Positions 1,223 through 58,900 of a stretch of 64,000 bases of DNA are shown here, piece by piece. The stretch's first letter is position 1, and each line of letters starts with the position of its first letter. Where the stretch lies: assembly GCA_002633005.1 (NCBI GenBank), contig NMRA01000419.1:280770-344769 (forward strand), in the 5' to 3' direction. Both the position numbers and the translations under genes were made by a program. The DNA comes from Phoronis australis (lineage: Eukaryota > Animalia > Phoronida). A model generated the notes under the pieces. It saw only the letters and a program-made list of their open reading frames with translations, made no database searches and was not told the origin of the DNA.

Positions 1223-13562
<12,340 letters not shown>

Positions 13563-31824: not shown

Positions 31825-32737
31825 CAAAGGGGAATCAACTGGTTGGACTTCAAAACCACTTGTACGCACTTCAAAACCAGTGGGCTGAGCTGTAAAACCA
31901 AATGGCCGGGAATCAAACGTCGTCCAGACTTCAAAACACGATGGCCTCACTCAAAAACTAGTTAGCTGTACTCAAAACACAATGGCCCGTGCCAAAACTA
32001 TTTGGCCGGTGATCAAACACGACGGCACTGATTTTTCTCAGACTCTGTCTGAATGTCTCGGAGGATTCAAGTGCCATCTATTGTTTATTTTTCGTACCCG
32101 TTTTTTTTCTTTTGTTCAAAATCGGGGATTTGTTCGGGCATTAATGTGTGTTTGAGCACCGCCGGGCTAATCCGTTTTAGGTCCGGCCAATTAACCAAGT
32201 TTTTTGTGCGACCATCTGGTGTTGAGGTACCGGCCGACCTGTTTGAGGTATTAAACCGACCTGTTTGAGGTACCGACCGACCTGTTTGAGGTAGCGGCCG
32301 ACCTGTTTGAGGTACCGACCGACTTCGTTGAGGTACCGGCCGCCCTGTTTGAGGTCCGACCGTCCTGTTTGAGGCACCGACCGACCTCGTTGAGGTACCG
32401 GCCTACTTGTTTGAGGTACCGGCCGGCTTGTTTGAGGTCCGACCGACCTCTTTGAGGTACCGGCCGACCTGTTTGAGATACCGACAGACCTGTTTTAGGT
32501 ACAGGCCGACCTGTTTGAGGTACCGACAGACCTCGGCTGTTTGAGGTACCGACCGACCTGTTTGAGGTACCGACCGACCTCGTTGAGGTACCGGCCGACC
32601 TGTTTGAGGTCCGACCACCAATGAAGTGAGAACACTGGCTCGGCTGGCCATGGGGTTTTGCAGCCCAACCAGTTGGTTTTCAGTGAAGTCCGGGAAATTG
32701 GGTTTTAAGTCCTACCAATTGTTGAGTCCTCCCTTGA
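31825..32737. mobile_element. Foldback/MITE-like element with long degenerate TIRs and an internal 21-bp array
   Basis: Left end CAAAGGGGAATCAACTGGTTGGACTTCAAAACC resembles the reverse complement of the right end (CAAGGGAGGACTCAACAATTGGTAGGACTTAAAACC). Confidence 0.55.
32219..32616. repeat. 21-bp minisatellite, ~18 copies
   Basis: GTTTGAGGTACCGRCCGACCT unit. Confidence 0.92.
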
Positions 32738-42519: not shown

Positions 42520-43110
42520 AAATAACACTCTTGTAGTCTACGAGTGAGTCGTTGGGAGACGAACTGTGTGTCCTAAAAACCGCTGTGCGTTATTTTCTTC
42601 TTAATTTGCTTAATTTCAGTGTGGACATTCTCTACACTGATATCGTGTGTTCAAAAGATTGCAAGGACATGGGATTGTTGATGGTACGGGATAGGTATAG
42701 CTCCACCTGTAGGAGCGTGTGCTCATGAAAGGTGATTTTTGAAACATGACGGCGCAGTTGGACATCCCGTTGCTCCCAACTTGTTCGATTCATAGCCCCA
42801 CCAACAACAAGTTGGGAAGTTTACACCCCCGGCGGAGAACCAAAGGGACATAATAACACTCTTGTAGTCTACGAGTGAGTCGTTGGGACTCGGAGACGAA
42901 TTGTGTGTCCCCAAGAACCACTTTGCGTTACTTTCTTCTTCTTTCCCTTCAGTCTGCCGTATTCACATTCTAAAATTGTGGACTCCCTCAGGACTTTGCA
43001 AAGAAATGGGCACGTTGACTGTAAGCTAGGTATAGTCCTATCATTAAATAGGAGCAGGTGGATGTTTTGAAAAAACACTCGGCTCCCGCAAATGCATCGA
43101 TGTGCCCGTA
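42520..43110. repeat. ~330-bp diverged direct duplication
   Basis: AATAACACTCTTGTAGTCTACGAGTGAGTCGTTGGGA at ~42521 and ~42853, with downstream similarity. Confidence 0.65.
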
Positions 43111-43988
43111 CACTTCTTTATAATTCAGTGACTGTATGGATTGATTATGCTTTGCCTCTATGCTCACGGAATGGGTGTTATCTTTTCCCACACGTAAGGA
43201 ACCTCATTTGGCATTTCCATTTTTTGAATTTCCCAGCCGTTGACTGTAGGCTGCGTAGATGTAAGAGCCCTACCATATTACCGACGAGTGTGTGCTCATA
43301 TAGGCCTCAGTACTAAGCCCGACTTTGGCGAAAAAATGAACTCTGTTCCGATAATTAATGTCTCCAATTCATGCAAAGGGTACCAGTTATAGGCCTAACT
43401 CCTTGGTGTTTATACATTTTTGGCCAAGTCAACTGAATTAAAATTCAAATGAAGACTTTTCTGAGCCTGGACCGCTATATGTTGCGACAGATAACTCAAA
43501 ACACCCCCGGCACGGCGCTCCTCTCATCAGCAGCAGCCACCACCTCCAAAAGCCACTTCCGTTGCAAATTCCGACATGTACTGCCTCTAAAGCCACCGAC
43601 CCCCCCGCCCCCCCGGCACGCGCTGCCCCGAACACTGAGCTAGCCTTTAGTACCGATAATGTATGGGTTCCTTAGGAGGAGGGTTTTTGTGTCGGAACAT
43701 TTCACGCACAGCCCAAAGTGGCTGAACCGATCAGCGCTATCTTGAGGCTCGGGGACGAGGCTGGATAATCCCAACGGATAGATACCGTTTGGTGAAGATT
43801 CTTTTAATCTATCCATCATAACACAATTAAAAGATACATCGTGACATGGAATTCTTATTTAAGTCACACGATGCTTTTATATCAGTTCCGATTCATATTC
43901 GAAAGTGTTATATTTAGAAGGAAATGAATTTCCGGTTAAAAAGGAAGGAGAGCATTGTTATCGTAAAACGTTTTTTGAAGAGCAAGTT

Positions 43989-46900
43989 ATGAACTCTGAA
44001 GATACGTATGAAGGTAAATCTTAGTTCGAAATCGAAATAAAATATAACCTGTGCTTGTGTCTTTATTTTGGTCTTTTAGCCGTGCCTCTTAATTTATGAC
44101 AATAGCCATTTTCAATCGATTACAATCGACGTGAATTCTGAAAGTGAACAGGTGAAACAAATCCTAGCCACCAAGCTACTGCAGTGCAGGCTAGTAGTTG
44201 CCAAAGTTTTTATACTTGGGTTATGGTTGGAGACCCTCCTGTGTTCTTTGCCAACCGGTATTTATCACCGTAACTGGTAATAACGTTTGAGTTAAAATGT
44301 ACTGGCAGCCAGAAAGTCGAACAAGCTCAGACTTTTTTGTCAATAAAGTAAATGTCTTTGCGGTATCGTCCGGTTACCTATTTTCGTCGGGCTCCAAAGT
44401 TCGTCCGCCATCTTGTTTCGCGTGCAGCGCAACCACGCGGGACTTAGCGTTCCAATTTGGAGTGCTCGTCTTCACGTTAGGTACTAACCTCTCGGGAGAA
44501 ACACGTATCAAAGTAATGAGACAAAAATCGGTGAGTTTACCGATTGTTTTTTAAAACCACTTAAAAATCAGTAGATTTTACTAATACACTTTTTTGTGCG
44601 TTTTCAGAAGATGTTTTCGAATTTAAATTTTCTTCCGACGGGACACAAAACATGATCCAGGGTTTGTTTATGCAATGTATCTGTTTGTCCCAGGCACTAG
44701 TAGGATCTAGAAGGCCAAAGGAAAAATCCGCAGACAAATGCGATACGCTGGGTTCTTAACATTTTTGCCTCACGTTCACCATTAAACTGCATTGAAATGT
44801 TGTCCAATTGGCTTTTATTGGAAACCACAGTGCAGAGCTCAACATCAAAGCTTCAAATCGAGTTTATGTCAATAAAAACAGGCTGTTGCAATTTTCATTA
44901 CTTCGTTGGCCTTTTTCTGCATGTTTCTCAGTTTTTACAAAAGGGGGCAGCATATGACGAACTTAGGTGTCACAATAAAATGGCTGCCGAAGGCAGTGCA
45001 CATTTGAAATAACTCGGCACAAATTAAAGAAAACTTCCGAATCGATGAATGCGGTATATCTGTGAGAGTTAAATCGAATCCTATTCAGATCATAACTTTG
45101 AAGTGGAATAATTCGGTGAGTACAACAGCAAGTCGGTTTTATGCTTAGGCGGACGAACATTGGGTTCCCCAGTATATATCAATGCGTGTTGCGACCGATA
45201 GATGGCGCGCACGTGGTAATAAATAAAACAACACAGGAATACTTTAACAATAGAATACGTCTATTAATTTGCAGCGTTGTGATTTACAAACAATAGATTA
45301 CAATAAGTTGTGAGAATGACGACTAACTGATTGAGACAAGATATCCCTACTGGAGAAACTACTAGTCAACAATGCCACTAGTTCCCCGTAGCTACCGCAC
45401 TCATTAACACAAAACAAGTCACAACAGAACTAACCCTCCAGAACAATCACTAGCCGGTTCAAATTGACTAACAGGCTGAGACCAACGCCAGTGATAAGTG
45501 TCTGTACCTCAGTTGTCCTTTCTCCTTGACTTTTTGGTCACACGAAGTTGCTCGTCTGGCCCCGGCTTTGTCTCTGTAGTCTGAAGTTATCTTCCAGCTC
45601 TGGAGTCGTGCCCCGTAGTCTGAAGTTGTGATCTATGGTGGATCCAGTCTGCCCTGGTCTCGAGAGCCAGTGCTTTAAATACTAAACTAAGTGGCATCAC
45701 GCGATGGACCCACTCTGTATGTACATATATGTACATCTCCCTATAACGAGCTAAAAAGAACTAGCTAACTGACCATCCCCCTAGAAAATTCTTGCATAAC
45801 TGCCACTATTCCTGGGTTTTCATTATCAGAGCACTATTCCTGGATTTAACTACCACAGAGGTACAGCATATCTCCTGAAATTTCTTGCATGCACATGGAG
45901 GGCATAGCCTCATTATATTACTTCTTTTCATGTTCTTTGAATGCCTTTGATGGGCTCCTTTACTGTTGCAATTGAGTATTATTCAATCTTAGTACTAGTG
46001 TGCTTTACTTGGCCACTGTTGTAAATTGTGGCTACTTAGGTTCTACGGTGCTACTCACCCTCGTTCATTTCTTGACTTTAAACGCCCTGTGAAACACACG
46101 TCCTCTTCTGATGGAGGACGACAAACGAGAGAGCAGGTCCAGCAGGTCCCCAGTCATGTGGCATGTACTATACGACCAAAGACGGACAACATTGAAACTG
46201 GACAACAAATACCTATCTAGGTTCACGACATTCATCCCCTCCCTTAAAAATTACTAAATAAACTAATTGGAAAAAAAACTAATGAGGAGTGAATGTGAAC
46301 AGGAACTAAAAAAACTATAACTATTTCCCCCCTACCTAATAGTTAGTGGACAAACAGCCTCAATAATGAGACATGTTAGTACAAACTATGGCGTCCGGTA
46401 ACTATATCATAAAAAAGTGACTGGGGGCCCTAAACTAAGATTGAAAAATCTGAGGAAAAATGAGCCAATTCTTGGCAAAATGTCAAAACAACAAAAAAAA
46501 CCGAACAAAATGAGCTAATAATAAAAAAAACTGAACATCGAGTACCCTAATTGTCAACTAAACTAATAAAGAAATAGATTATCAACTTAACACAACAAAT
46601 AACAATAAGGTAGCATAGCTTGGTGAAACTGAGCAGACCTACCCGCGAATGAGTATCCCTGGATCCCTGATGTGACTGAAAAAAAACAAGAAATTTTTAG
46701 AGGAATGTCAAAGGTAGTAACTGGTAGCTTTTTGCTATTTCACGTGAACTATTAAACATTAACTACAAAGCTATGCTACTAAACAAAACAAAGCAACGCT
46801 GGATTCACTGTCGACGAGCCTACAGCTTATACAATCGGCCGGCATTCCTAGCGGTCTGACGAAGGACTTGTCAAACAGTCATGCCGCGTTGATTGGCCAC

Positions 46901-49900
46901 CACCTCAGCCACCTCTCCTACGAACTGAGGATAATTTGGACGTTCCTTCAACGACAAATGTGGCGCGTCGGTATCCAAAAGGAGACGGTCTTCAGGTACC
47001 TTTCGCAAGGCATCAACTTGTCATCTTGTGAAGGTGTTACAGTTGCCGGAGAACCCGAAATAGCAGTTCGGAAACTGTTGGCAAAAATTCACTACACTAG
47101 CGTTGGTATCCCTGGTAAAAGTGTGTAGGTGTATCCTTTGGGTTGACGGAAGAAGATCCACAACGATGTTAAACACGGTTCAGAAGCCCCAGTCGTAGTG
47201 GGAACCAGGGGAGGCCGAACGGACATGGAACACCAGAGTCTTGTCCTTCACACTTCCATTGCGACGAGTAAGGTTTGCAAAGTACGGGAGTAGATTTTCA
47301 ATGAAACAAGCCTGTTCACGTTCGTTACCCAAGGACTGTTCAAACCCTATTTCGCCAAGACCAACGACGGAAGTTTCCCTGAGAAGCTGAAAGAGTATTG
47401 TTTTGGCTGCCTCCGAGAAGTTATTGACTTGTTTTGGGTGCACGCCTACCACCGCTTTGAACCCTAGAGGAAGGGCCCTCACGTAATCCTTGATAGGACG
47501 ACGATGGTATTCTGCTGGATCACAAAAAACAATGATGCCACCCACCAGTTTCATAGGATGCGACAAAGCGGTGAGGAGTCGCATCAAGAAGGTCCGGTAT
47601 GGACAGAAAACGGCTGTTACAAATATTGCATTTTGAGCTGTAAGCTGCCGTCAAACGGTCAATATGGAAATGGGAGTCTATAGCAGACTCTAATGCTTGA
47701 GATGATGTAGCTGGCGGAAGTACAGGAGCCTTGAATGGTGCTCGAGCAGCACTTGCATAGGTCTTCACGGTAGAAGACGTGGTCAATTGACTCACAAATG
47801 GCAGAGCTAAGGACTGTACATCTTTTGAACCACAGTTGAATGACAGGACCCACACTGAATGGTTAGGTTCTGGTTTGTGCGCCATCAGATGCAGCATCAC
47901 AAACCAGTGCATGCACAGGCCAGGGTTAAGTAATCTTCCAGAAATCGACAAAGGGGTTACTGGCGTCAGCCACCCCAGTACCCAGCACGAGATCATTAAG
48001 TGTAACTTGTCTTCTATAGTTACACGGGGCAGCTTGGCAACGCTTCGGAGGGCCAGTCTCGCGAGGTCGAGATCTTCATAGTTGCTCATTACTCGTCCTT
48101 CAATCTGCCACAACAGAGACTTAAATGCTTCAAAACGGGCATGTTGCACCTCATTGGATGAAAGGCGACACACTGAGTCAACATCAAAAACTGCCGGCAG
48201 ATGATTTGTCAAGGCGTGTGACCGTAAGTGGCCCTCTCCAGCTGAAAAGCTACTGAGGGGACAAATCAGATCTCCCGGCTTTGGTTTACGATTGGAAGGT
48301 GAAGATGAAGGTGAGGATGCAGATGCCTCACTGGGACGATTAGATACAGGTGGCGAGTCTCGATCACCAGTAGAAAGAGCTACAGACTGGTCAACTGGTG
48401 ACTTAGCAGAGTCAGTAGATTCTATAGTTTCCATAGGTTCAGGAACATCTTCCTGAATTAAATCTGGATTACGTACAACAGTTATCTTTGGTAGGTCTGG
48501 ATTATTCTTCAGATGGACATCCACACATGAAAAAGAGGTTCTGGAACAAGAACAAAGATGTAATTAAGTCTTGCACCGCGGACACAAATAAACATCCATA
48601 TCATGAGCATCATCAGCTGTAATGTTGACACACTCACCGTGTACCCAATCATCACGAGTCACACTGAATCATAAGGCCACCATGTTCAGGCTGACGACAC
48701 ACGCAATATAACTGATCATTTGCGCTAGTGTCAAGGTTAACAATGTTAACTATTCTTTGAAGCCAAGCAGGTAAATCCGTATAACTAGTCTTACATAATT
48801 TCATGCGATCATGATGAATCACTGACACAGAATTCTTAACACGAATTCTATATAGAGCTGGTGAGATGACTTCAGTGATAATACCAGGTCCCCTCCAAGG
48901 AGATGATAACTTCTTACAATTACGCTTTGAAGAAGCTGAGTCAAAGATAAACACCAGATCGCCTGTTCGGAAAACACGTTTAAATATAGTAAGGTCATAA
49001 TCTTTCTTCATAGAAGATTGACTAGTTTGCAGTACACCACGTGCAGTTTCGTGCTCTTTCAAAATCTGGAAATGATAACCAAAATGCGCGAAAAATTCAT
49101 TTACTGCTGCCACAGCAGTAAATGAATTTTTCATGCGTAATGCTGCGGTAGCTGTAACTTCGGCAGTCTGGGAAGGAAGGGGAATACATTCCACCCACAA
49201 CACCACGTTTTAAAAATCTACTGCTCACAGCTATGTTTTTCTGCGAATTTCTGCGGCCTAGGTCTCCATTTATTTTTGGTCAGTTGACTTACTAGTAGTT
49301 AGTTTGCATATAGGACAAATCACTGCCGTAAGGGAGATATTTGCAGTTTTTCAGTGTATTTATATCCAATCTATTATTCATAGGTACCTGTTTCCATACA
49401 CATTGTTTTAGTATTTGTCTATTTTATCAGTGGGATAATAAATTGGTTGAACATTCCCATTACACTTCAGGGACATGCGCTGTTTGCCTTGCTTTCCACA
49501 AGCATTGTATTGCCTAGCCAGCTAGCTGTGTATCACTCAACGCCTAACAGATTGGAATTGATGAATAAAAAGTTGAAAATTTAGGGCAAATTCGCTTTTT
49601 AGTTCACTCAAACTCTCATAAGTAGTTTACAAGAAAATGTGGTATCCCATCCGCTTTTGTATGTCATTTTCAAAACAATATGCTCAAATTTTTGGTTTGT
49701 TAAAAAGACGTATGTGAAACAAAATTTGCTTCCAATATGAGTTCCCTGATAATTAAATACTACAAAAGTACTAATGAACTTCAACCATATCTAGTATGGT
49801 TGTGAGTTGTGCACAAACTTGTGAAAAAGATCAGTGAATGGAAGATAAAATCATGAAAGTTTTGAAACATCTAGTTGAGGTAACAAAATACAGAAAAAAA

Positions 49901-52900
49901 AATGAATTAAATACTCAAGTAAGCAAATTGCTGTATTTGATTCAATTTTTCTGTATTTAGTGAATGGAAGAATCGATGAAAAACAATTGGCGAATAGACG
50001 GTGCTCTATTTGATGGGGCTCAAAGTACAGCCATTTTGACATTGCTAGGTTGTGCTAGTAAGGTCAATAGTATATTCGCAAAACACTGTCCTTCATGTGG
50101 CAGGATATTGAGAGGTCTTGTGTCATCTCAGTTATATTTACATGAAACTTGCTCTACGATGCACTACCTGGGCTCAGTTCAGAATCTCAAAATGTGTTCT
50201 TCAGTTAACCAAAATTAAGAAGGTCAAGATTATAAATCTTTGAGAAAATGAGACACTCTGCCTTCGAGAGGCCATTGTTGAATGCTTGATGAAAGGCTCA
50301 TCTTCATGTTTTTGTGCGACTTCCGGTTGTGTCTATTAAAGTTGCATAATTGCCTCTTTGAACTGCTCGTCAGCAGGCAATTGCTCTATGGCTAACTGGA
50401 TCAGGCACAAAATGACCATGCTGGAGGCCTGCGTTCTTCTACAGCTTAAACCAGGCTTGTTATAGCATTCAGGACTTTGTAGCTTTGAGCCCGAGAATGT
50501 CAAACTGCATAAGTATCGTTGGTCATCTCTGTCTTTGTTTGACAACAGTATCCCTATTAATAATAAATAAAGGCCAACAACTAGTAAAAATGTTGTTGTT
50601 GAGCTTTCCAGGATATTCATATTAATACTTGAAGATGATCTGCTGGACAACATCTACCTTGGTCATGTGGAACACTAGAAGTTGTAGTGGGACCTATGGT
50701 CACATGGTCACATGGGATCTTGTTTGTCTGGTGACATTGTCAACACTCTTTCCATGCAAATGAAAATTTAAATCTTGCGCCACCTAGCATGTTGAGAGGT
50801 TTGTTTTAGGGCTTAGGTGTAGAAAAAATCCTGTACCCCCTTGTTGTACGAGATCAGAACTACTTTTTAGTCACAGTGTGGTAAGAGTGAGTGACTTAGT
50901 GAGTCGCTTAAAAATGATCATCAAAATAGGGCAAGACTTCCTGTGATCACACTAACTGGATTTGTTGCACAGAACAATGTTCACCTAATCAGTGTATGAC
51001 TATGTTTTAGATGATGGTGGGTCTACACCTGTCCAAGATGAACGCGAATATCCAGACTTCACTCAAGCCTACAGTCAGCATGACCAAGGAGAAGAAAATC
51101 CTCCAGATTTCACTCAAGCATACAGTCAGCGTGACATAGGAGAAGAAGATGAACGTCCAGACTTCACTCAAGCGTACAGTCAGCAGCCTGAGCGTGATGA
51201 AGAAAGTCGGGAAAACTTTACTCAAGCTTACAGTCAACAGGTAATGGGTTTGCTAAGAACCACTAAAAATGTGTTCCTGGAAATCCCTTGCTTAAGTAAG
51301 CCAAGTACTTTGTGATCAGGGCACGTGATGTTTTATTTTTGAGACTTAAGGTCTACCTCATTGACCCACGAGGCCAGAAAATTCTCCAGTGATAAAAAAT
51401 ATTTCTCCTGTGTTTTGACTCAGGCAGGTACTCAAGGCTTAGAAAGTGTGTTTTGCAAAAATTCACTACAATATGGATTGTAACCTTGTTGCGTATTGTT
51501 GAGCTGGCCCAGGAGTTCACTCTGGTGTCCAAAATGCTTTTCCCAATTTCCCAGGGTGTCCATACCCTAGGCCTGAAAAGCCCAGTTGTTTCCTGGGCAA
51601 CTGACCCTGAAAATCAAGTCACCCTCCTGGAGCTAAGTTAGATTGTCCTGTTTTTTAAATAGCCTCTTTTTCAAGGCTGAAAATTCTCATTTTGCATTGG
51701 CACAGCTGACAAACTTGCTGCCAAACATTGATCAAAATCTCAATTTTATTCAGTTGATAGATGTCGGCAGCTATTCCACCTACTCTTTCGCGAGTGACTA
51801 GTCCTATCATACCAAGAAAATGTGCTTTGTAGATTCCTTGCAATGTTCACGATACACAAATTGTCACCTGTGGATCACGAACTTACCTAAAGTTTAATTG
51901 TGTTGTTTTAAATAATATCAGCACAATTATAGTTGTTGTTTTGTGTGAGATTTGCTTACGCATTAATGTTGTGTGTTAGATAAACTGCAGGCTATGATAA
52001 AAATTCATGTATTCAAATGCAATGATTTTTGTATGATTTTTCGTGGTTGGTTTCAGTCTCAAGAAAATGACGAGGAAGAAGGATTAATTGAGAGTGATAG
52101 CGAAGGTGAAGATGCGGCTGACACTGAAGACAGGGAAGAAGAGGTCACTGTTGAAGACAAAGATAAGGAAGAGGAATCTGATGATGGGGAGATAGTGTCA
52201 GAGGATGACGAGAGTGATAATGAATCGGACAAAGAGGATGAACAACACTCAGGAGAAGGTGAAATGGATTTATCTGACAATGACAGTGTGAATGATTCTG
52301 GTGGAGGCCGACAATCACCTGATGGACCTGCTAGTCCTGAGATGGACGAAGGGCCAGCCAGTCCTCAATCAGATACTGAGCCAGCATCGCCTGATGATGA
52401 CATAGGGCAATCTGGTCCTGCCTCTCCCAGTCCTGATTCCGACCAAGGCCCAGCATCACCTGATGGATCAGAATCAGGCAATCTGCACTTGACAGCTCCT
52501 GATGCACCAGACTCACCAGCCAGTAATCCTGCATCTCCAGTCAATGAGGACGATTCCAATGCTCGTGCATATTCCAGCGAAGACAACGGTCCCCAATCAC
52601 CTGACACACCCAGTCATGACACACCTGATTCACCTGTACAAGGTCAGGAAGAGCCCATTGCACCAGAAGAACCAGCTTCACCAGATGCTGAACTGGAAAA
52701 CCCACATTCCCCTGAGGAGGAACATGAAGGACCAAAGTCTCCAAACGTGAATCTTGAACAACCGGCTTCTCCTATTTCAGAGCAGGTTAAGCCAGAGTCG
52801 CCAGGCCAGGAGGCAGAAGAGCCTATGTCGCCAGGCTCTCCACTGGGTCCCGAGTCGCCTAAGTCTCCAGGCGAAGAAGGACCTGCCTCCCCAGTGTCAC

Positions 52901-55900
52901 CAGAATTTGAGGAGATTGAAACTGTGGCTGAAGAAGTCCACTCTTCAGTACCATCTCCAGGAAGAGTTGATGATGATGATGATGATGATAAGGAAGATGA
53001 TTCCTCTCCTAATGAAGTCACTGGCATGACAGAAAGTGTGGCTGAGGAAGTGGTGGGAGGGAAGGAGTCAGAGGATGAGGAACAGATGGTAGCTGAAAGG
53101 ATGATCTCTGCTGATGTTGCAGGTTGGTAATATTCACTGTGGTCGCTAGGAGCATAACATTTAGAGCCTTGTCACACGAAGGCAGTTCCCTGCACAATCT
53201 TGAAAACGGCACTAAAACTTCAGTGGGAACCGGATAAGCATTATACAATCTAAGCAAGAACCCCGTGGCCTGTCACATTAGAGGCATTTTTTGACCAAAG
53301 TACTTTCTTTCTGTCCATCCCTACCAGTAGCCGGTTTCATCAAAATATTAAGACAAGTGTGACAGGGCCTTGAACATTATGCTGAGAAATAGTTGTCATG
53401 TTGAAAGACATGTCAAATACCTCGCTATGGTACTTTGCGTTACTATGTAACCACTGTTGTGAGGTGATGTTGCTTGATTTGTCATGTAATGTTATTTCTT
53501 AAGTCACCCAGACAACAGGTGGTGCTGTTGGTGAATGACCTGACTAAATACCGGCTGCATAGTTCATAAAGCCATAACCATGTAATGGAAGTTAACGAGC
53601 AGACAATGGCTCAGTACATCAAAGATGAAAAGACATGTTAATCTAAGAGACAAAGAGGTGCAAGTTGCAGTCAGTCAGTAGATTTAGGTCGCAGTTGTAA
53701 TGTGACACAATAAAGACACAATATTTACATATTTAGTTTGGACACATTTGCAGCTTCCATTTGTTCTGATAACTCCTAACTATTGTTTTTAGCTCTGGCA
53801 AGTTGTTGACAGAAATCTCTGTCATCACTGCCACCTTGTGGTCACTGTCTATTTTCGTCTTTCTTTTCAGCACCAAGCCATGAAAGTGACAAGGAATCTG
53901 TAGATGAGAACGCTAGTGATGCTGAGAGTGAGAAGGGGTACTGACACGTTTTGTTTCTCTTAAATTTTGTGCTGTTTTTTGGCAATCTGAACTGTAGGAA
54001 CGTAATACTTGAGTACGGTGGTTGCTCTGCAATTGCATTGTGATGTGTAGAATTGGTAAATCGCATCACATGGTAAACTGCCTTCTTGACCCTTTATCAG
54101 CTTCTGTTCAGCACACATTTACAAAGTCATGTAACCAACATGTTGCTTTCTTTACAGGAGTGCTGTTGGAGAACTTATTGCCATTTACAAAGTCATGTAA
54201 CCAACATGTTGCTTTCTTTACAGGAGTGCTGTTGGAGAACTTATCGCTGACATTTTTGGATCAAGTGATGAAGAGGAAGAATTTGAGGTGCTTTTTGTAA
54301 AAAATGTGTCATAGGGCTCATAATTTGACCTTGTCTCCTTTGAGGAATTGAGAGCCTGTGTTGCAGTTGCTCACTGTTGATAGCTCAGTAGTCATTCTAC
54401 TTCGCTGAGTCATAAAAAAATACATGACGGACTACATCAACATGGAACCTTTTATTCAAAAGTTGAAACTTTCACCTTTAAGGGTGTAATGAAGTGTATG
54501 ACGAAATAAGAAAGCTATTTCCAGACATCAAGTATTTCAAGCGTGTTCATTTCTCTAATCTTAAGATTATTGTGTACTGTGCATTTTCACTAATTTCTAA
54601 CTAACTGGATTTTATTTTTAGTCGATTATGTTTGTTGTGCAGTTGTAAATACATTGGTAAATTTTTTCGGTACCCTAGGGATTCAATGAAGCAGACGTGC
54701 AGGAAGGCAAGACCAAGGCAAAGAGAGCTGTGATTGGCTCAGATGATGAACAGGAAGCTGGTGAGAAAGAGGCTGCACCAGTGGCAGACGATCAAGTTAT
54801 TCCAGACTTGTCTGATGAGGAAGATGATGACAAAGTCAACAGAGAGTAAGTAGGGGATGGGTGATGTGTAAACAGAGAGTAAGTAGGGGATGGGTGATGT
54901 GTAAACAGACAGTAAGTAGGGGACGGGTGATGTGTAAACAGACAGTAAGTAGGGGACGGGTGATGTGTAAACAGACAGTAAGTAGGGGATGGGTAATGTG
55001 TTACAGATATGAATCAAAGTAGAGAGTAACAGGACAACCCAAAAGAAATCAGTCAAATGATAGGAATCCATCATCATGATAGCTTCCTAAAAGGGAAACA
55101 CTAAATTTACTGGGCAGGTGTAGTAGCCGTCCGTCATGGCTGGCAATTTAGTGGAAAGTTGACATTAGTGGAATCGCTATTCTATTTTTAGAATATTGCC
55201 ATGATAACTGGTCACTTTTGCAGTAAGTAAAATTATCTATCATGATGGAGAAACACTGTTTTGTCTGATTACTGTTAGTGCACCTTGTAATTCATTGTTT
55301 CTTTGATCGGGGCGACATTTCAGGTCATTTTTACATATGAGCTGTTGAGCACTCGATCTTATTACTGGGGTTAAAGTCATACAGAGTAGAAATTGCTTTA
55401 CGGTTTTTTCAAACTTGATTCATGATTTCTCACATTTTTTGAGGATGGTAGTGGCACTACCTAGGATGGTTTGGGGAAATATTTCTATGTGCAGGGGTGA
55501 TGTCCTGTATGGTGGCTGTGTGTTGGAATACTTCTTCTAACATTTTATTCCTGCTTACAGTACACGACTAAAGTTATCAGACAAAACACCGTTTTCCCGT
55601 CATAACAGCAAATTCTGTTAACAGCAAAAATGACTGATAGTAACCATCAAGAGGGGTATCTTCTAATCGCAGAATGGTTGAGTCACCTTACTAACGTTCC
55701 TGTTAATTCCACGTCATTCTCTGTCGTGATGATAGATTACTCCGAGGGTCGTGACGGGAAATTCCGTGTCATTTTGTTTGAATACTTTAGGCTTGTACTG
55801 TAACTATGGCTTTTCACAAATGCAGGCTGTATGAGATTCCCCCATCTAGCTAATAGTAAACTTTCCATTAGGTCTTATCCAGCCAGGCAGAGAAAATTTT

Positions 55901-58900
55901 TTTTTGGAATAATGCGTGGTATGAGTTATCTGAAGGTCGGAGTGCTCACACTAAAACACTCATTCCGCAGAACTTTGAACAAACATGTGACTAGTGCAAG
56001 TTTTACCATATGTCTGTCATAATTATTAAGACATGAAGAAATGTAATGACCTGATGGGGTCGTACTGCTCAGGTTTGCATGAACACTGTCCTATAGGTGG
56101 CTCTCAAGTTAGCATCCAATAGCAACATCATGTGGAACGGTGTATAACTCAGGCTTCAGAATAACATTGTATCTTTATGTTCCAGGGACTTTGTGTCCGA
56201 CTTTGACCTAATGATGCAACGAAAGAAGGAGGAAATGGGAAAGAGACGGCGCAAGCGGAAAGACGTTGACATCATCAACGACAATGATGACCTCATCGTT
56301 GACCTAATTAGGAGGATGAAAGAGGCAGCTGAGGTAGAGTGCAGACCAGTCACTTACATTGACATGTGATGATTTTACTAGTTAGATAATTATACTATCA
56401 ATAAAATTAGCATTATGTAGAAACTTGTCTACAAGTATGTACATTTAGCCAAATATCTACAAACTATTGAATTTGGCAGCAAAAGTTTACATTTTCTGAA
56501 AGTAGAAATTCCATAGAATTCAATTTTTGACTTAATACCAATCTATCATTAATTGGTGTTGGGAATGTGCTTATGTCATGAAATTAAGTAATAAGGAAAT
56601 GTACCTTCATAGCAAAACAACAAAATCAATGACATGATGAGCAAATTTTATATAAAATGTTAAAGGTAAAAATCACAAAACAGCTGTTAAGTTTTTTAAA
56701 TTATCATTTTGTTTTTGTTTTATGCAATTTAAGTTGTTTTCATAAAAATTATGATTGTGAAACTGTTGCATCAGTAGATATTTTCAATGTTTTATGAGCT
56801 GCCATGTCTTAATATTTCAGAAACATGTATTTAACACTGAAATCATCCATGTCCCAATCTTCATGATCAAGAAAAATAATTTTCAGCTTGAATTTTGGTG
56901 TCCCAAATTTTAGAGACTGTCTCAATCTAGAGAATTTTTACCGTAATCCTGAGGTTATGGTGACCATGTGTCAAATGTTTTCCAAGCCGAACTTAAATGT
57001 TTCGTTTAAAGAAAGCATTGTCCACTTATGTTTGAAGTCAAAGGAACACAAGATGTGTGTCAGTGAATGTTTTTGAAGAAAATCAATTATTTTTCCTTTG
57101 GTACTGTTAAACGTGGGCATGCATGTTTTTACTTTCCTATTTTTTTTCTTAATTTTTAATATCCATGTTTCATTTTCTGACTACATTTAATAAATGTTTT
57201 CACATGCTTTCAACAGGAAGACAGAGAACTGAACAAAGTGAGAAAACCTGCCTTAAAGAAATTAGCCATGCTGCCTGAGGTGAAATCACAGCTTATTAAG
57301 TAAGTTTCTAAACCTTGTTATGGAGAACATTTTGCTGGCTTGTGGCCTTTTTGTTTCTATGAACGCATCATCTGACTTCAGATGGCACTAGTTCACTGCA
57401 GCTGGAGTGTGTAGTTGATAGCAATTTTGTTGTTGATCAATTCTTTAGTTGCTGCTGCAATCCAGGTGGAACAATTTACTTGTCATTCTTTTCATTTCAG
57501 ATCTGGTATACACATAGCCTTTCTAGAGTGTGGCATCCTAACAGCAATAACAGTAAGTTGAAGCAGAATACTGAGGCAATTGTGTTTGGCTTGTTGACAA
57601 TGTTTTTCACTTTTTCGTTGCCTCCTTTGTCTGAATGAAAAACAAACATTCAGCCGTTTTAAATTTTTATGCCTCCTTTACCTGTTGTTGCTGTCTGTAG
57701 CTTTAGATCGGTTTGTGAAAAATTTGTTCCTTTTCTTTTAAGCGTTTTGCGGACTTGTATAAACCTGTCTTCCATGATAAAACTAACTTTTGCTTAAGAA
57801 CCTTAATTTGCAGCTATGAACTCAAAATTTTCCTTACTTAAGTAAATTATGCCAAGGTGCTTTCAGGTGCCTGTTTCTTTTTAAAGTCTATAGCCAAAAG
57901 CTGATTTTATGTCTTTTGGCTTTTAGTCTGCTTCCAAATAGGCTACAGATTTCTGTCTTCTTGCTTTGAGTTGTAGACAGGTTTTCTGACTTTTAGCCGT
58001 AGCTTGATTTTTTTGGTCTCAAGTAATAAAATAGTTCAGATCATACTGAAGCTTGCCTTGAAAAAAAGCAGATGGTGTGACTGTATTATGTGCAAGTTGG
58101 CGATATATATGTATGTATGTATTACTGGTTACCAGTAGGTTATAATGACTTTCAGTGTATTACACGCAAGTACTGGTTACCAGTAGGTTATTATGTCTTT
58201 CGCTGTATTACATGCAAGTACTAGTTACCAGTAGGTTATAATGTCTTTCACTGTATTACACGCAAGTACTGGTTACCAGTAGGTTATAATGTGTTTCACT
58301 GTATTACATGCAAGTACTGGTCACCAGTAGTTTATAATGTCTTTCACTGTGTTACACGCAAGTTCATGACTCTAGACACTAATTATGTCTTTCATTGTAT
58401 TACATTCATTGTGCTTGTTTATGACATCTTGTCACTCCATTGCAGGAATGGTTGGCACCTCTTCCTGACAAAAGCCTTCCTCATTTGCAGATCAGAGAAT
58501 TTTTACTTAAAATACTGGGAGAGGTAAGAAACAGTTAAGGGCTCATCCAGCAAAATCCGTATGGGGGGACGGCGGTAGAAATAAAAATTCATGGGTGGTG
58601 GTTTCCAGAAAAAAGCTCAAATTATGGGTGGTCATTCTAAGAAGTGAAGCATTAAAACTGGATGGTATTTTTTGACCTGTCAATGTTGACTGGTTGGTAT
58701 TTTCATCCAAACACATCTTAAAAGAAAAAACAACTCATCAAACATTCACTTGGCAAATACCCTATCACATCCCAAAACATCAAACAAGCCCATGTTGCCT
58801 GTGTACAGAGTGCAATATGTACTCTAAGCCATTAATCAAGTCGTGAGCAACTTGATTATGAACACATGTTCAACTCCAGTCATATTAGAATGAAACTGGT

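Follow-up and report, generated by a model that had tools for sequence, protein, structure and literature searches.

The 64,000-nucleotide stretch of Phoronis australis DNA analysed here (contig NMRA01000419.1, positions 280,770 to 344,769; in the following "the window", with position 1 at its first letter) carries on its minus strand the decayed 3' end of a Gypsy long terminal repeat (LTR) retrotransposon. Its parts are (i) an integrase/PHD remnant of pol, (ii) a third open reading frame (ORF3) coding for a TatD nuclease, (iii) a polypurine tract, and (iv) one LTR. A first-pass annotation of the window had proposed a Gypsy element with a TatD nuclease in the place of env, and this proposal was confirmed by a Pfam match of ORF3 and by the order pol-PHD-ORF3 in related elements.

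The pol remnant (48564..49209, minus strand) starts only at about 49200 and consists of part of the integrase core, the SH3-like C-terminal domain of integrase and a PHD finger; it is 5'-truncated, carries an internal deletion and is shifted in frame near 48655, which breaks the PHD finger. Pfam matches were obtained for Integrase_p58_C (E 4e-6), SH3_Tf2-1 and PHD_5, and a tblastn search of the window with the intact pol protein of a related locus (L104) matched residues 1212-1244, 1373-1501 and 1504-1537. Since neither gag, reverse transcriptase nor a second (5') LTR was found in the 64-kb window by sequence or tblastn, the element is a 5'-truncated, dead copy.

ORF3 follows the pol stop (48566-48564), comprises about 573 codons counted from 48540, and ends with the stop at 46822-46820. 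It is divided over two overlapping frames of the minus strand: the first (47520-48563, 347 aa) holds a zinc-finger-like stretch and the motif DSHFH (47678), the second (47650-46820) the motifs GEIG, FHVR, LHTF and DTDAP. The frame break lies near 47565, and the second frame is interrupted by three TGA stops (47182-47180, 47023-47021 and 46873-46871), in agreement with the frame of roughly 570 codons with one frameshift and three TGAs described in the first-pass annotation.

The TatD domain (46820..47690, minus strand; Group II, HxH) was assigned from Pfam, motifs and a family profile (235 bits). With stops read as X, the second ORF3 piece matched Pfam TatD_DNase (PF01026) with 96.2 bits (E 2.7e-27) at a cut-off of 27 and also resembled solved TatD proteins; it did not reach the cut-offs of bacterial NCBIfam models. 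As a Group II feature, the HxH motif is common to TATDN2, TATDN3, YcfH and YjjV (PMC10085689). All six metal ligands initially reported as intact are present in the window copy, divided over the two frames. As for the canonical ETD, which reads DTD here, its first acidic residue does not serve as a metal ligand (PMC10085689) and is E in 146 of 150 family members and D in one; these and the following member counts refer to the best 150 protein clusters of the family. The ligands H, H, E, H, H and D are all kept in 123 of the 141 members covering the six sites, and TatD is the sole Pfam family common to ORF3 members. The model of a homologue (P0018) is a TIM-barrel matching TatD structures (E 3e-15, target TM 0.82), the layout being N-terminal domain, disordered linker and TatD barrel; an Atlas search gave no usable match for another homologue (P0019). 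A DEDDy exonuclease domain, considered as an alternative for ORF3, was rejected because Pfam and fold give TatD.

A profile search covering 1.84 billion representatives revealed at least 150 protein clusters sharing ORF3, the best 150 all scoring at least 277 bits. In separate searches, relatives at about 35% identity amounted to 15 matches among short and 8 among long proteins. From 80 loci of a metagenome motif scan, 20 tblastn matches and finally 19 family loci were obtained; the one match dropped (L108) looks like an ordinary bacterial gene. In all five family loci with at least 2.9 kb of upstream sequence (L086, L104, L117, L118 and L125), pol precedes ORF3, and a sixth (L134) contains pol-PHD-ORF3(TatD) in permuted order. 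Locus L104 is open throughout and encodes a gag protein of 513 aa, a pol protein of 1537 aa (protease, reverse transcriptase, RNase H, integrase and PHD finger) and an ORF3 protein of 907 aa with TatD. The order protease, reverse transcriptase, RNase H and integrase is shared by L104, L117, L118, L134 and L086, the window retaining the integrase end only. A gag gene with a zinc knuckle lies ahead of pol in L104, L118 and L134, two of which show a PNMA-like capsid match. We regard the layout gag, pol-PHD, ORF3(TatD) as practically certain for this element family. Two points speak against this reading: genomic context covers the 19 loci, not the 150 clusters, and neither the window nor the family loci showed an element with two separate LTRs plus target-site duplications. 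L104 and L134 read as though both LTRs had collapsed, with the ends of L134 overlapping by 179 nt.

Since the pol proteins of other family loci share only about 50-55% identity with the L104 protein, the capture of TatD is old. Named members of the family stem from Dreissena polymorpha and Ostrea edulis, and in Dreissena one cluster comprises 47 members, identical proteins recurring across several accessions. Several others are labelled as bacterial bins and are inferred to be host DNA; a bacterial origin of the "Sedimenticola" proteins was rejected, as these are placed within the element clade. No relative was detected on viral contigs, where two motif matches failed in tblastn, and the LTR/leader DNA of the window had no blastn match in the 19 family loci. 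As further observations on these loci, the gag protein starts with a helix-hairpin-helix match in L104 (9556-11094), L118 (31-1767) and L134 (4120-4938), and in L158 a protease piece (2046-2426) immediately precedes ORF3, resembling an element with an internal deletion.

Ahead of the nuclease, ORF3 encodes an N-terminal module (47830..48290, minus strand; family profile E 3e-14) composed of a basic cluster, a C2H2-like finger and a helical domain with a conserved H-W motif at its end. Long relatives share a disordered start, the finger, the helical domain and the C-terminal TatD domain; 71 of 79 long members fit C-x1-5-C...H-x3-5-H-[LIMFV]-P, and about half (37/77) have a basic cluster ahead of the finger. 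The C2H2-like motif noticed in the window thus belongs to a finger present in the family, but the window copy shows a single Cys in place of the family's two. Folded alone, the N-terminal domain of L104 reached a pLDDT of 87. It had no match in Pfam and none by Foldseek in PDB or BFVD; compared with 48,161 chains, its best Z was 3.4 (rmsd 4.4, 79 residues aligned), which does not imply novelty of the fold. The same helical domain occurs in a second group of proteins (P0024, P0192-P0207, P0216, P0223 and P0224) forming a TatD branch of its own; the N-terminal domain is present in 14 of 16 of these and in none of 15 tick TATDN2-like proteins. The family adds an unnamed, confidently folded domain. 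In two Ostrea edulis proteins (P0072 and P0267) the N-terminal H-W motif is present twice, which suggests a doubled domain.

Downstream of ORF3, a 3' untranslated region (46246..46819), across which sense RNA depth runs on, is followed by the polypurine tract (46231..46245) and a TG-starting LTR, all on the minus strand; the same arrangement of tract and LTR is found in L104, L134 and L086. The LTR starts at 46230, and its end may lie at 46017 or 45187, both candidates ending in CA. In the short reading (46017..46230, 214 bp, TG...CA) it contains an ATG (46068) and the splice donor GTGAGT (46058). The segment 45187..46016 (minus strand) may then represent a decayed primer-binding site and leader, or alternatively the remainder of a 1044-bp LTR, or partly another repeat. 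The L104 LTR has its end about 255 bp past the start and 23 bp beyond a comparable donor, and a primer-site-like TGG stands behind this short LTR; the window has the same pattern at 46017. Candidate primer sites starting with TGG are present, unmatched to any tRNA. In the window, L104, L134, L086 and L141, the LTR contains a GT(A/G)AGT sequence 170-240 nt from its start; none was found within 400 nt of like LTR starts in L101, L110 and L147. Within 45170-45871, summed contig depth climbs to 2400-7500 and RNA is mostly from the other strand. As a separate observation, 45187-45870 has a copy number far above the rest of the element, with many deletion variants, and may be the LTR of another family.

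At the other end of ORF3, a pyrimidine tract ending in AG at 48541 (splice acceptor, 48541..48566, minus strand) lies directly behind the pol stop. Such a tract with AG follows the pol stop in each of six relatives, being weak in L118, and in five of the six an ATG follows within 8 nt of the acceptor. A read-through fusion of Pol and TatD was rejected, as stop and acceptor stand between them in all relatives. RNA evidence came from three runs (X5, X6 and X7) of one study with the same species label. Reads at 80-95% identity cover ORF3, mostly from one strand, which would be the sense strand in a library of the usual type. Loose ends at the AG acceptor were found in 20, 28 and 6 reads of the three runs. 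For X5 and X6, the loose part could be placed at a single site of the window (46059-46081, 3 mismatches, none expected by chance) and ends exactly at the GTGAGT donor in the LTR; sense depth drops upstream of the acceptor as well as downstream of the donor. The joining of the acceptor to the LTR donor is thus well supported, and the simplest reading is that ORF3 is read from an env-type spliced RNA, running from the LTR donor to the acceptor behind the pol stop. Against this reading, the LTR ATG of the window, 10 nt ahead of the donor, would not be in phase with ORF3 once donor and acceptor are joined. The first in-frame ATG past the acceptor (48434) lies downstream of a motif conserved in relatives.

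The same junction reads could arise from back-splicing of the 3' LTR donor to the upstream acceptor, yielding a circular ORF3 RNA in place of a linear message. Short reads are ambiguous in this respect because the donor occurs in both LTRs; with a 1044-bp LTR and a promoter near 45683 the donor would, moreover, sit upstream of the start site, and no AATAAA precedes the donor in the window copy. However, the short LTR of L104 with its donor near the end and a primer-site-like TGG, the like pattern at 46017, and the ATG close behind the acceptor in most relatives, as in a linear message, render back-splicing improbable. Apart from the junction of LTR donor and acceptor, two further RNA forms were observed. 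The six acceptor-ending reads of X7 (48534-48541) carry a different, unplaced upstream sequence, i.e., a second donor or another copy. A joint skipping nearly all of ORF3 (46665-48478, with 28 other letters between) was recorded in X5 and X6 with 10 reads apiece and was not listed for X7 or the DNA run X1; it may represent an ORF3-deleted copy or another splice.

Other copies of the element are evident from DNA and RNA. Summed DNA contig depth, which gives no copy number as such, is 165-417 across the element vs 38-49 in the flanks, which fits several copies. All first-mate-plus RNA reads listed differ from the window within two of the three stop codons and in the D codon of DTD, and read copies differ in length from the window near 47565 and 48530. 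Because reads of other copies differ at these sites, the defects of the window ORF3 (stops, the D of DTD and length changes) look private to this copy. Rfam had no match within window positions 43000-51000.

Selection on the TatD gene was assessed from 91 pairs of 14 loci; 14 of these pairs had at least 90 codons and at least 55% identity. In 12 distant pairs, the proportion of synonymous differences (pS) was 0.68-0.88 and that of nonsynonymous differences (pN) 0.17-0.32, synonymous sites being near saturation between families at 55-75% protein identity. Of 35 listed differences that separate the window from the read copies in the TatD frame, 23 concern third codon positions (p 9e-5). A ratio of nonsynonymous to synonymous rates (dN/dS) near 1, named beforehand as an outcome adverse to a functional gene, was not observed, and TatD of ORF3 appears to have been under purifying selection. 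Against this stand two close pairs with dN/dS of 0.44 and 0.70 and the unevenness of the third-position excess, which amounts to 21 of 26 in one table and 3 of 10 in the other and refers to best-supported rows only. This weak constraint in close pairs, together with the dead state of the window copy, would also suit neutral cargo or a one-off event in which a host TATDN gene was retrocopied. Such an origin is nevertheless extremely improbable, considering the same slot in six loci despite the divergence of their pol proteins, the number of clusters, the conservation of ligands and splice sites, and the restriction noted above of the N-terminal domain, which tick TATDN2-like proteins lack.

The origin of the nuclease was approached with a rapid maximum-likelihood tree built on 91 rows (33 element, 16 second-group, 13 tick TATDN2-like and 29 bacterial), 22 of the bacterial rows being drawn at random from loci of a generic-motif scan of GTDB (bacterial TatD only; outgroup). 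The 29 bacterial rows form one side of a branch (support 100), and the element proteins, which have long branches, stay with the 13 tick TATDN2-like proteins; the window TatD falls within the element clade (support 99). With the family profile, tick TATDN2-like proteins scored 205-235 bits, 86 bacterial TatD proteins 101-159, human TATDN3 70 and TATDN1 62-65. The nuclease of ORF3 therefore probably derives from a host TATDN2, as judged from sequence. Like animal TATDN2, which gave the top family-profile score of the groups tested, it has the HxH motif, the ligand set and a long N-terminal extension, but it is element-borne, multi-copy, on long branches and preceded by a domain absent from the tick proteins. 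Some properties of the tree weigh against this derivation. It resulted from a quick search without bootstrap, element, second and tick groups are not resolved from each other, and the comparison with host TATDN1/2/3 and bacterial TatD suggested at the outset was achieved on the bacterial side, while the host side consists of the 13 tick-like proteins, some taken as hosts by sequence likeness alone, with TATDN1 and TATDN3 absent.

Enzyme genes behind pol are known from the Juno and Vesta LTR retrotransposons of bdelloid rotifers, whose ORF3 encodes a DEDDy exonuclease or a GDSL esterase (PMC5408684). The likeness consists in an enzyme gene with intact catalytic residues, of undemonstrated function, in a Gypsy-type env slot (PMC5408684); the present family differs by its TIM-barrel TatD, the extra finger/helical domain, its far larger size and the junction reads. 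The available part of PMC5408684 contains no match to TatD, that of PMC6238403 mentions neither PHD nor nucleases, and PMC6962438, as far as available, merely labels a TATDN2 in a Hox cluster. No description of a TatD ORF3 in LTR retrotransposons was found in papers; repeat libraries (Repbase, Dfam), supplements and most subscription journals lay outside this scope, so that a library entry may exist. The env gene of errantiviruses and retroviruses is expressed from a spliced subgenomic RNA (PMC5408684, PMC5718144). ORF3 resembles env in its position behind pol and in the use of a 5' donor with an acceptor near the pol end, and differs in encoding a predicted soluble nuclease and in a donor that appears to lie inside the LTR. 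A strongly hydrophobic 19-mer, as in an env-type membrane anchor, was found in only 4 of 150 members, and the ORF3 product is predicted not to be a membrane protein.

Taken together, the best overall explanation, which we consider to have about an even chance of being correct, is a spliced third gene that joins the finger/helical domain to a TatD nuclease from TATDN2 and serves nuclear R-loop removal. The ORF3 protein would be made apart from Gag-Pol and enter the nucleus via the basic cluster ahead of the finger, and the finger/helical domain would aim the predicted nuclease at nucleic acid or chromatin. There, it would attack RNA-DNA hybrids (R-loops) arising from the element and degrade their RNA strand, thereby keeping element transcription going and averting death of the germ cell from DNA damage. 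Such clearing at element loci is favoured because in R-loops human TATDN2 degrades the RNA strand (PMC10711561), loss of TATDN2 is lethal to germ cells in fish (PMC12709183), and in Drosophila active LTR elements give rise to R-loops impeding the transcription of these elements (PMC12448915). By itself, the role of the predicted nuclease in R-loops or RNA-DNA hybrids is put just short of even. It is weakened by the facts that TatD enzymes also cut DNA (PMC10085689) and that pol already encodes an RNase H.

A DNA-centred role, as favoured initially, would have the nuclease act on element cDNA or an integration intermediate by trimming 3' ends, removing RNA primers or nicking abasic sites arising from host base damage. 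The action of TATDN1 and TATDN3 both as AP endonucleases and as 3' exonucleases (PMC10085689) and the intact metal ligands would agree with this, as would second RNase H domains, a known gain in some Gypsy lineages (PMC9040795). However, ORF3 is a separate spliced message outside Pol, so that packaging is not guaranteed, and its nearest host kin is the RNA-cutting TATDN2; this role is thus rather unlikely. Kinship with TATDN2 may point as much to RNA substrates as the reading based on AP endonuclease and cDNA does to DNA. RNA would also be the target of an anti-silencing factor directed against small RNAs, antisense RNA or nascent transcripts through which the host silences the element, and destroying or masking them, in line with the RNA-nuclease kinship, the separate expression and the discussion of rotifer DEDDy exonuclease ORF3s in such terms (PMC5408684). 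The window offers nothing separating this possibility, which we hold to be quite unlikely, from the R-loop role.

Returning to R-loop removal, one may speculate, with less than even confidence, that an old and widespread animal LTR clade captured TATDN2, fused it to a new finger/helical fold and expresses it from an env-type spliced RNA as a putative R-loop-clearing, germline-protecting enzyme, many host or symbiont TatD annotations in bivalve data being in fact a transposon gene. Multi-copy TatD/TATDN2-like annotations in invertebrate genomes and symbiont bins may likewise be transposon genes. We know of no accessory enzyme of LTR retrotransposons with a demonstrated function, and such enzymes point to the host barriers met by these elements. 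With a gene intact in more than 100 lineages, a host cousin that is well studied, and a catalytic domain that is small and soluble, the function of this env-slot nuclease is testable.

Beside the retrotransposon lies a very high-copy element of about 810 bp (44363-45176), TA-bounded with imperfect inverted ends and a summed depth of 38,000-112,000, which looks like a non-autonomous DNA transposon. A short, repeated hairpin-like sequence is present at 49885-49958, where reads and a contig change strand. Two acidic, Pro/Ser-rich open frames on the plus strand (50989-51315, 108 aa, with a repeated motif; 51967-53130, 387 aa) are probably exons of a host gene. Tandem arrays are located at 9485-9864, 32213-32643, 54802-55034 and 58075-58452, with units of 19, 21, 33 and 48 bp.

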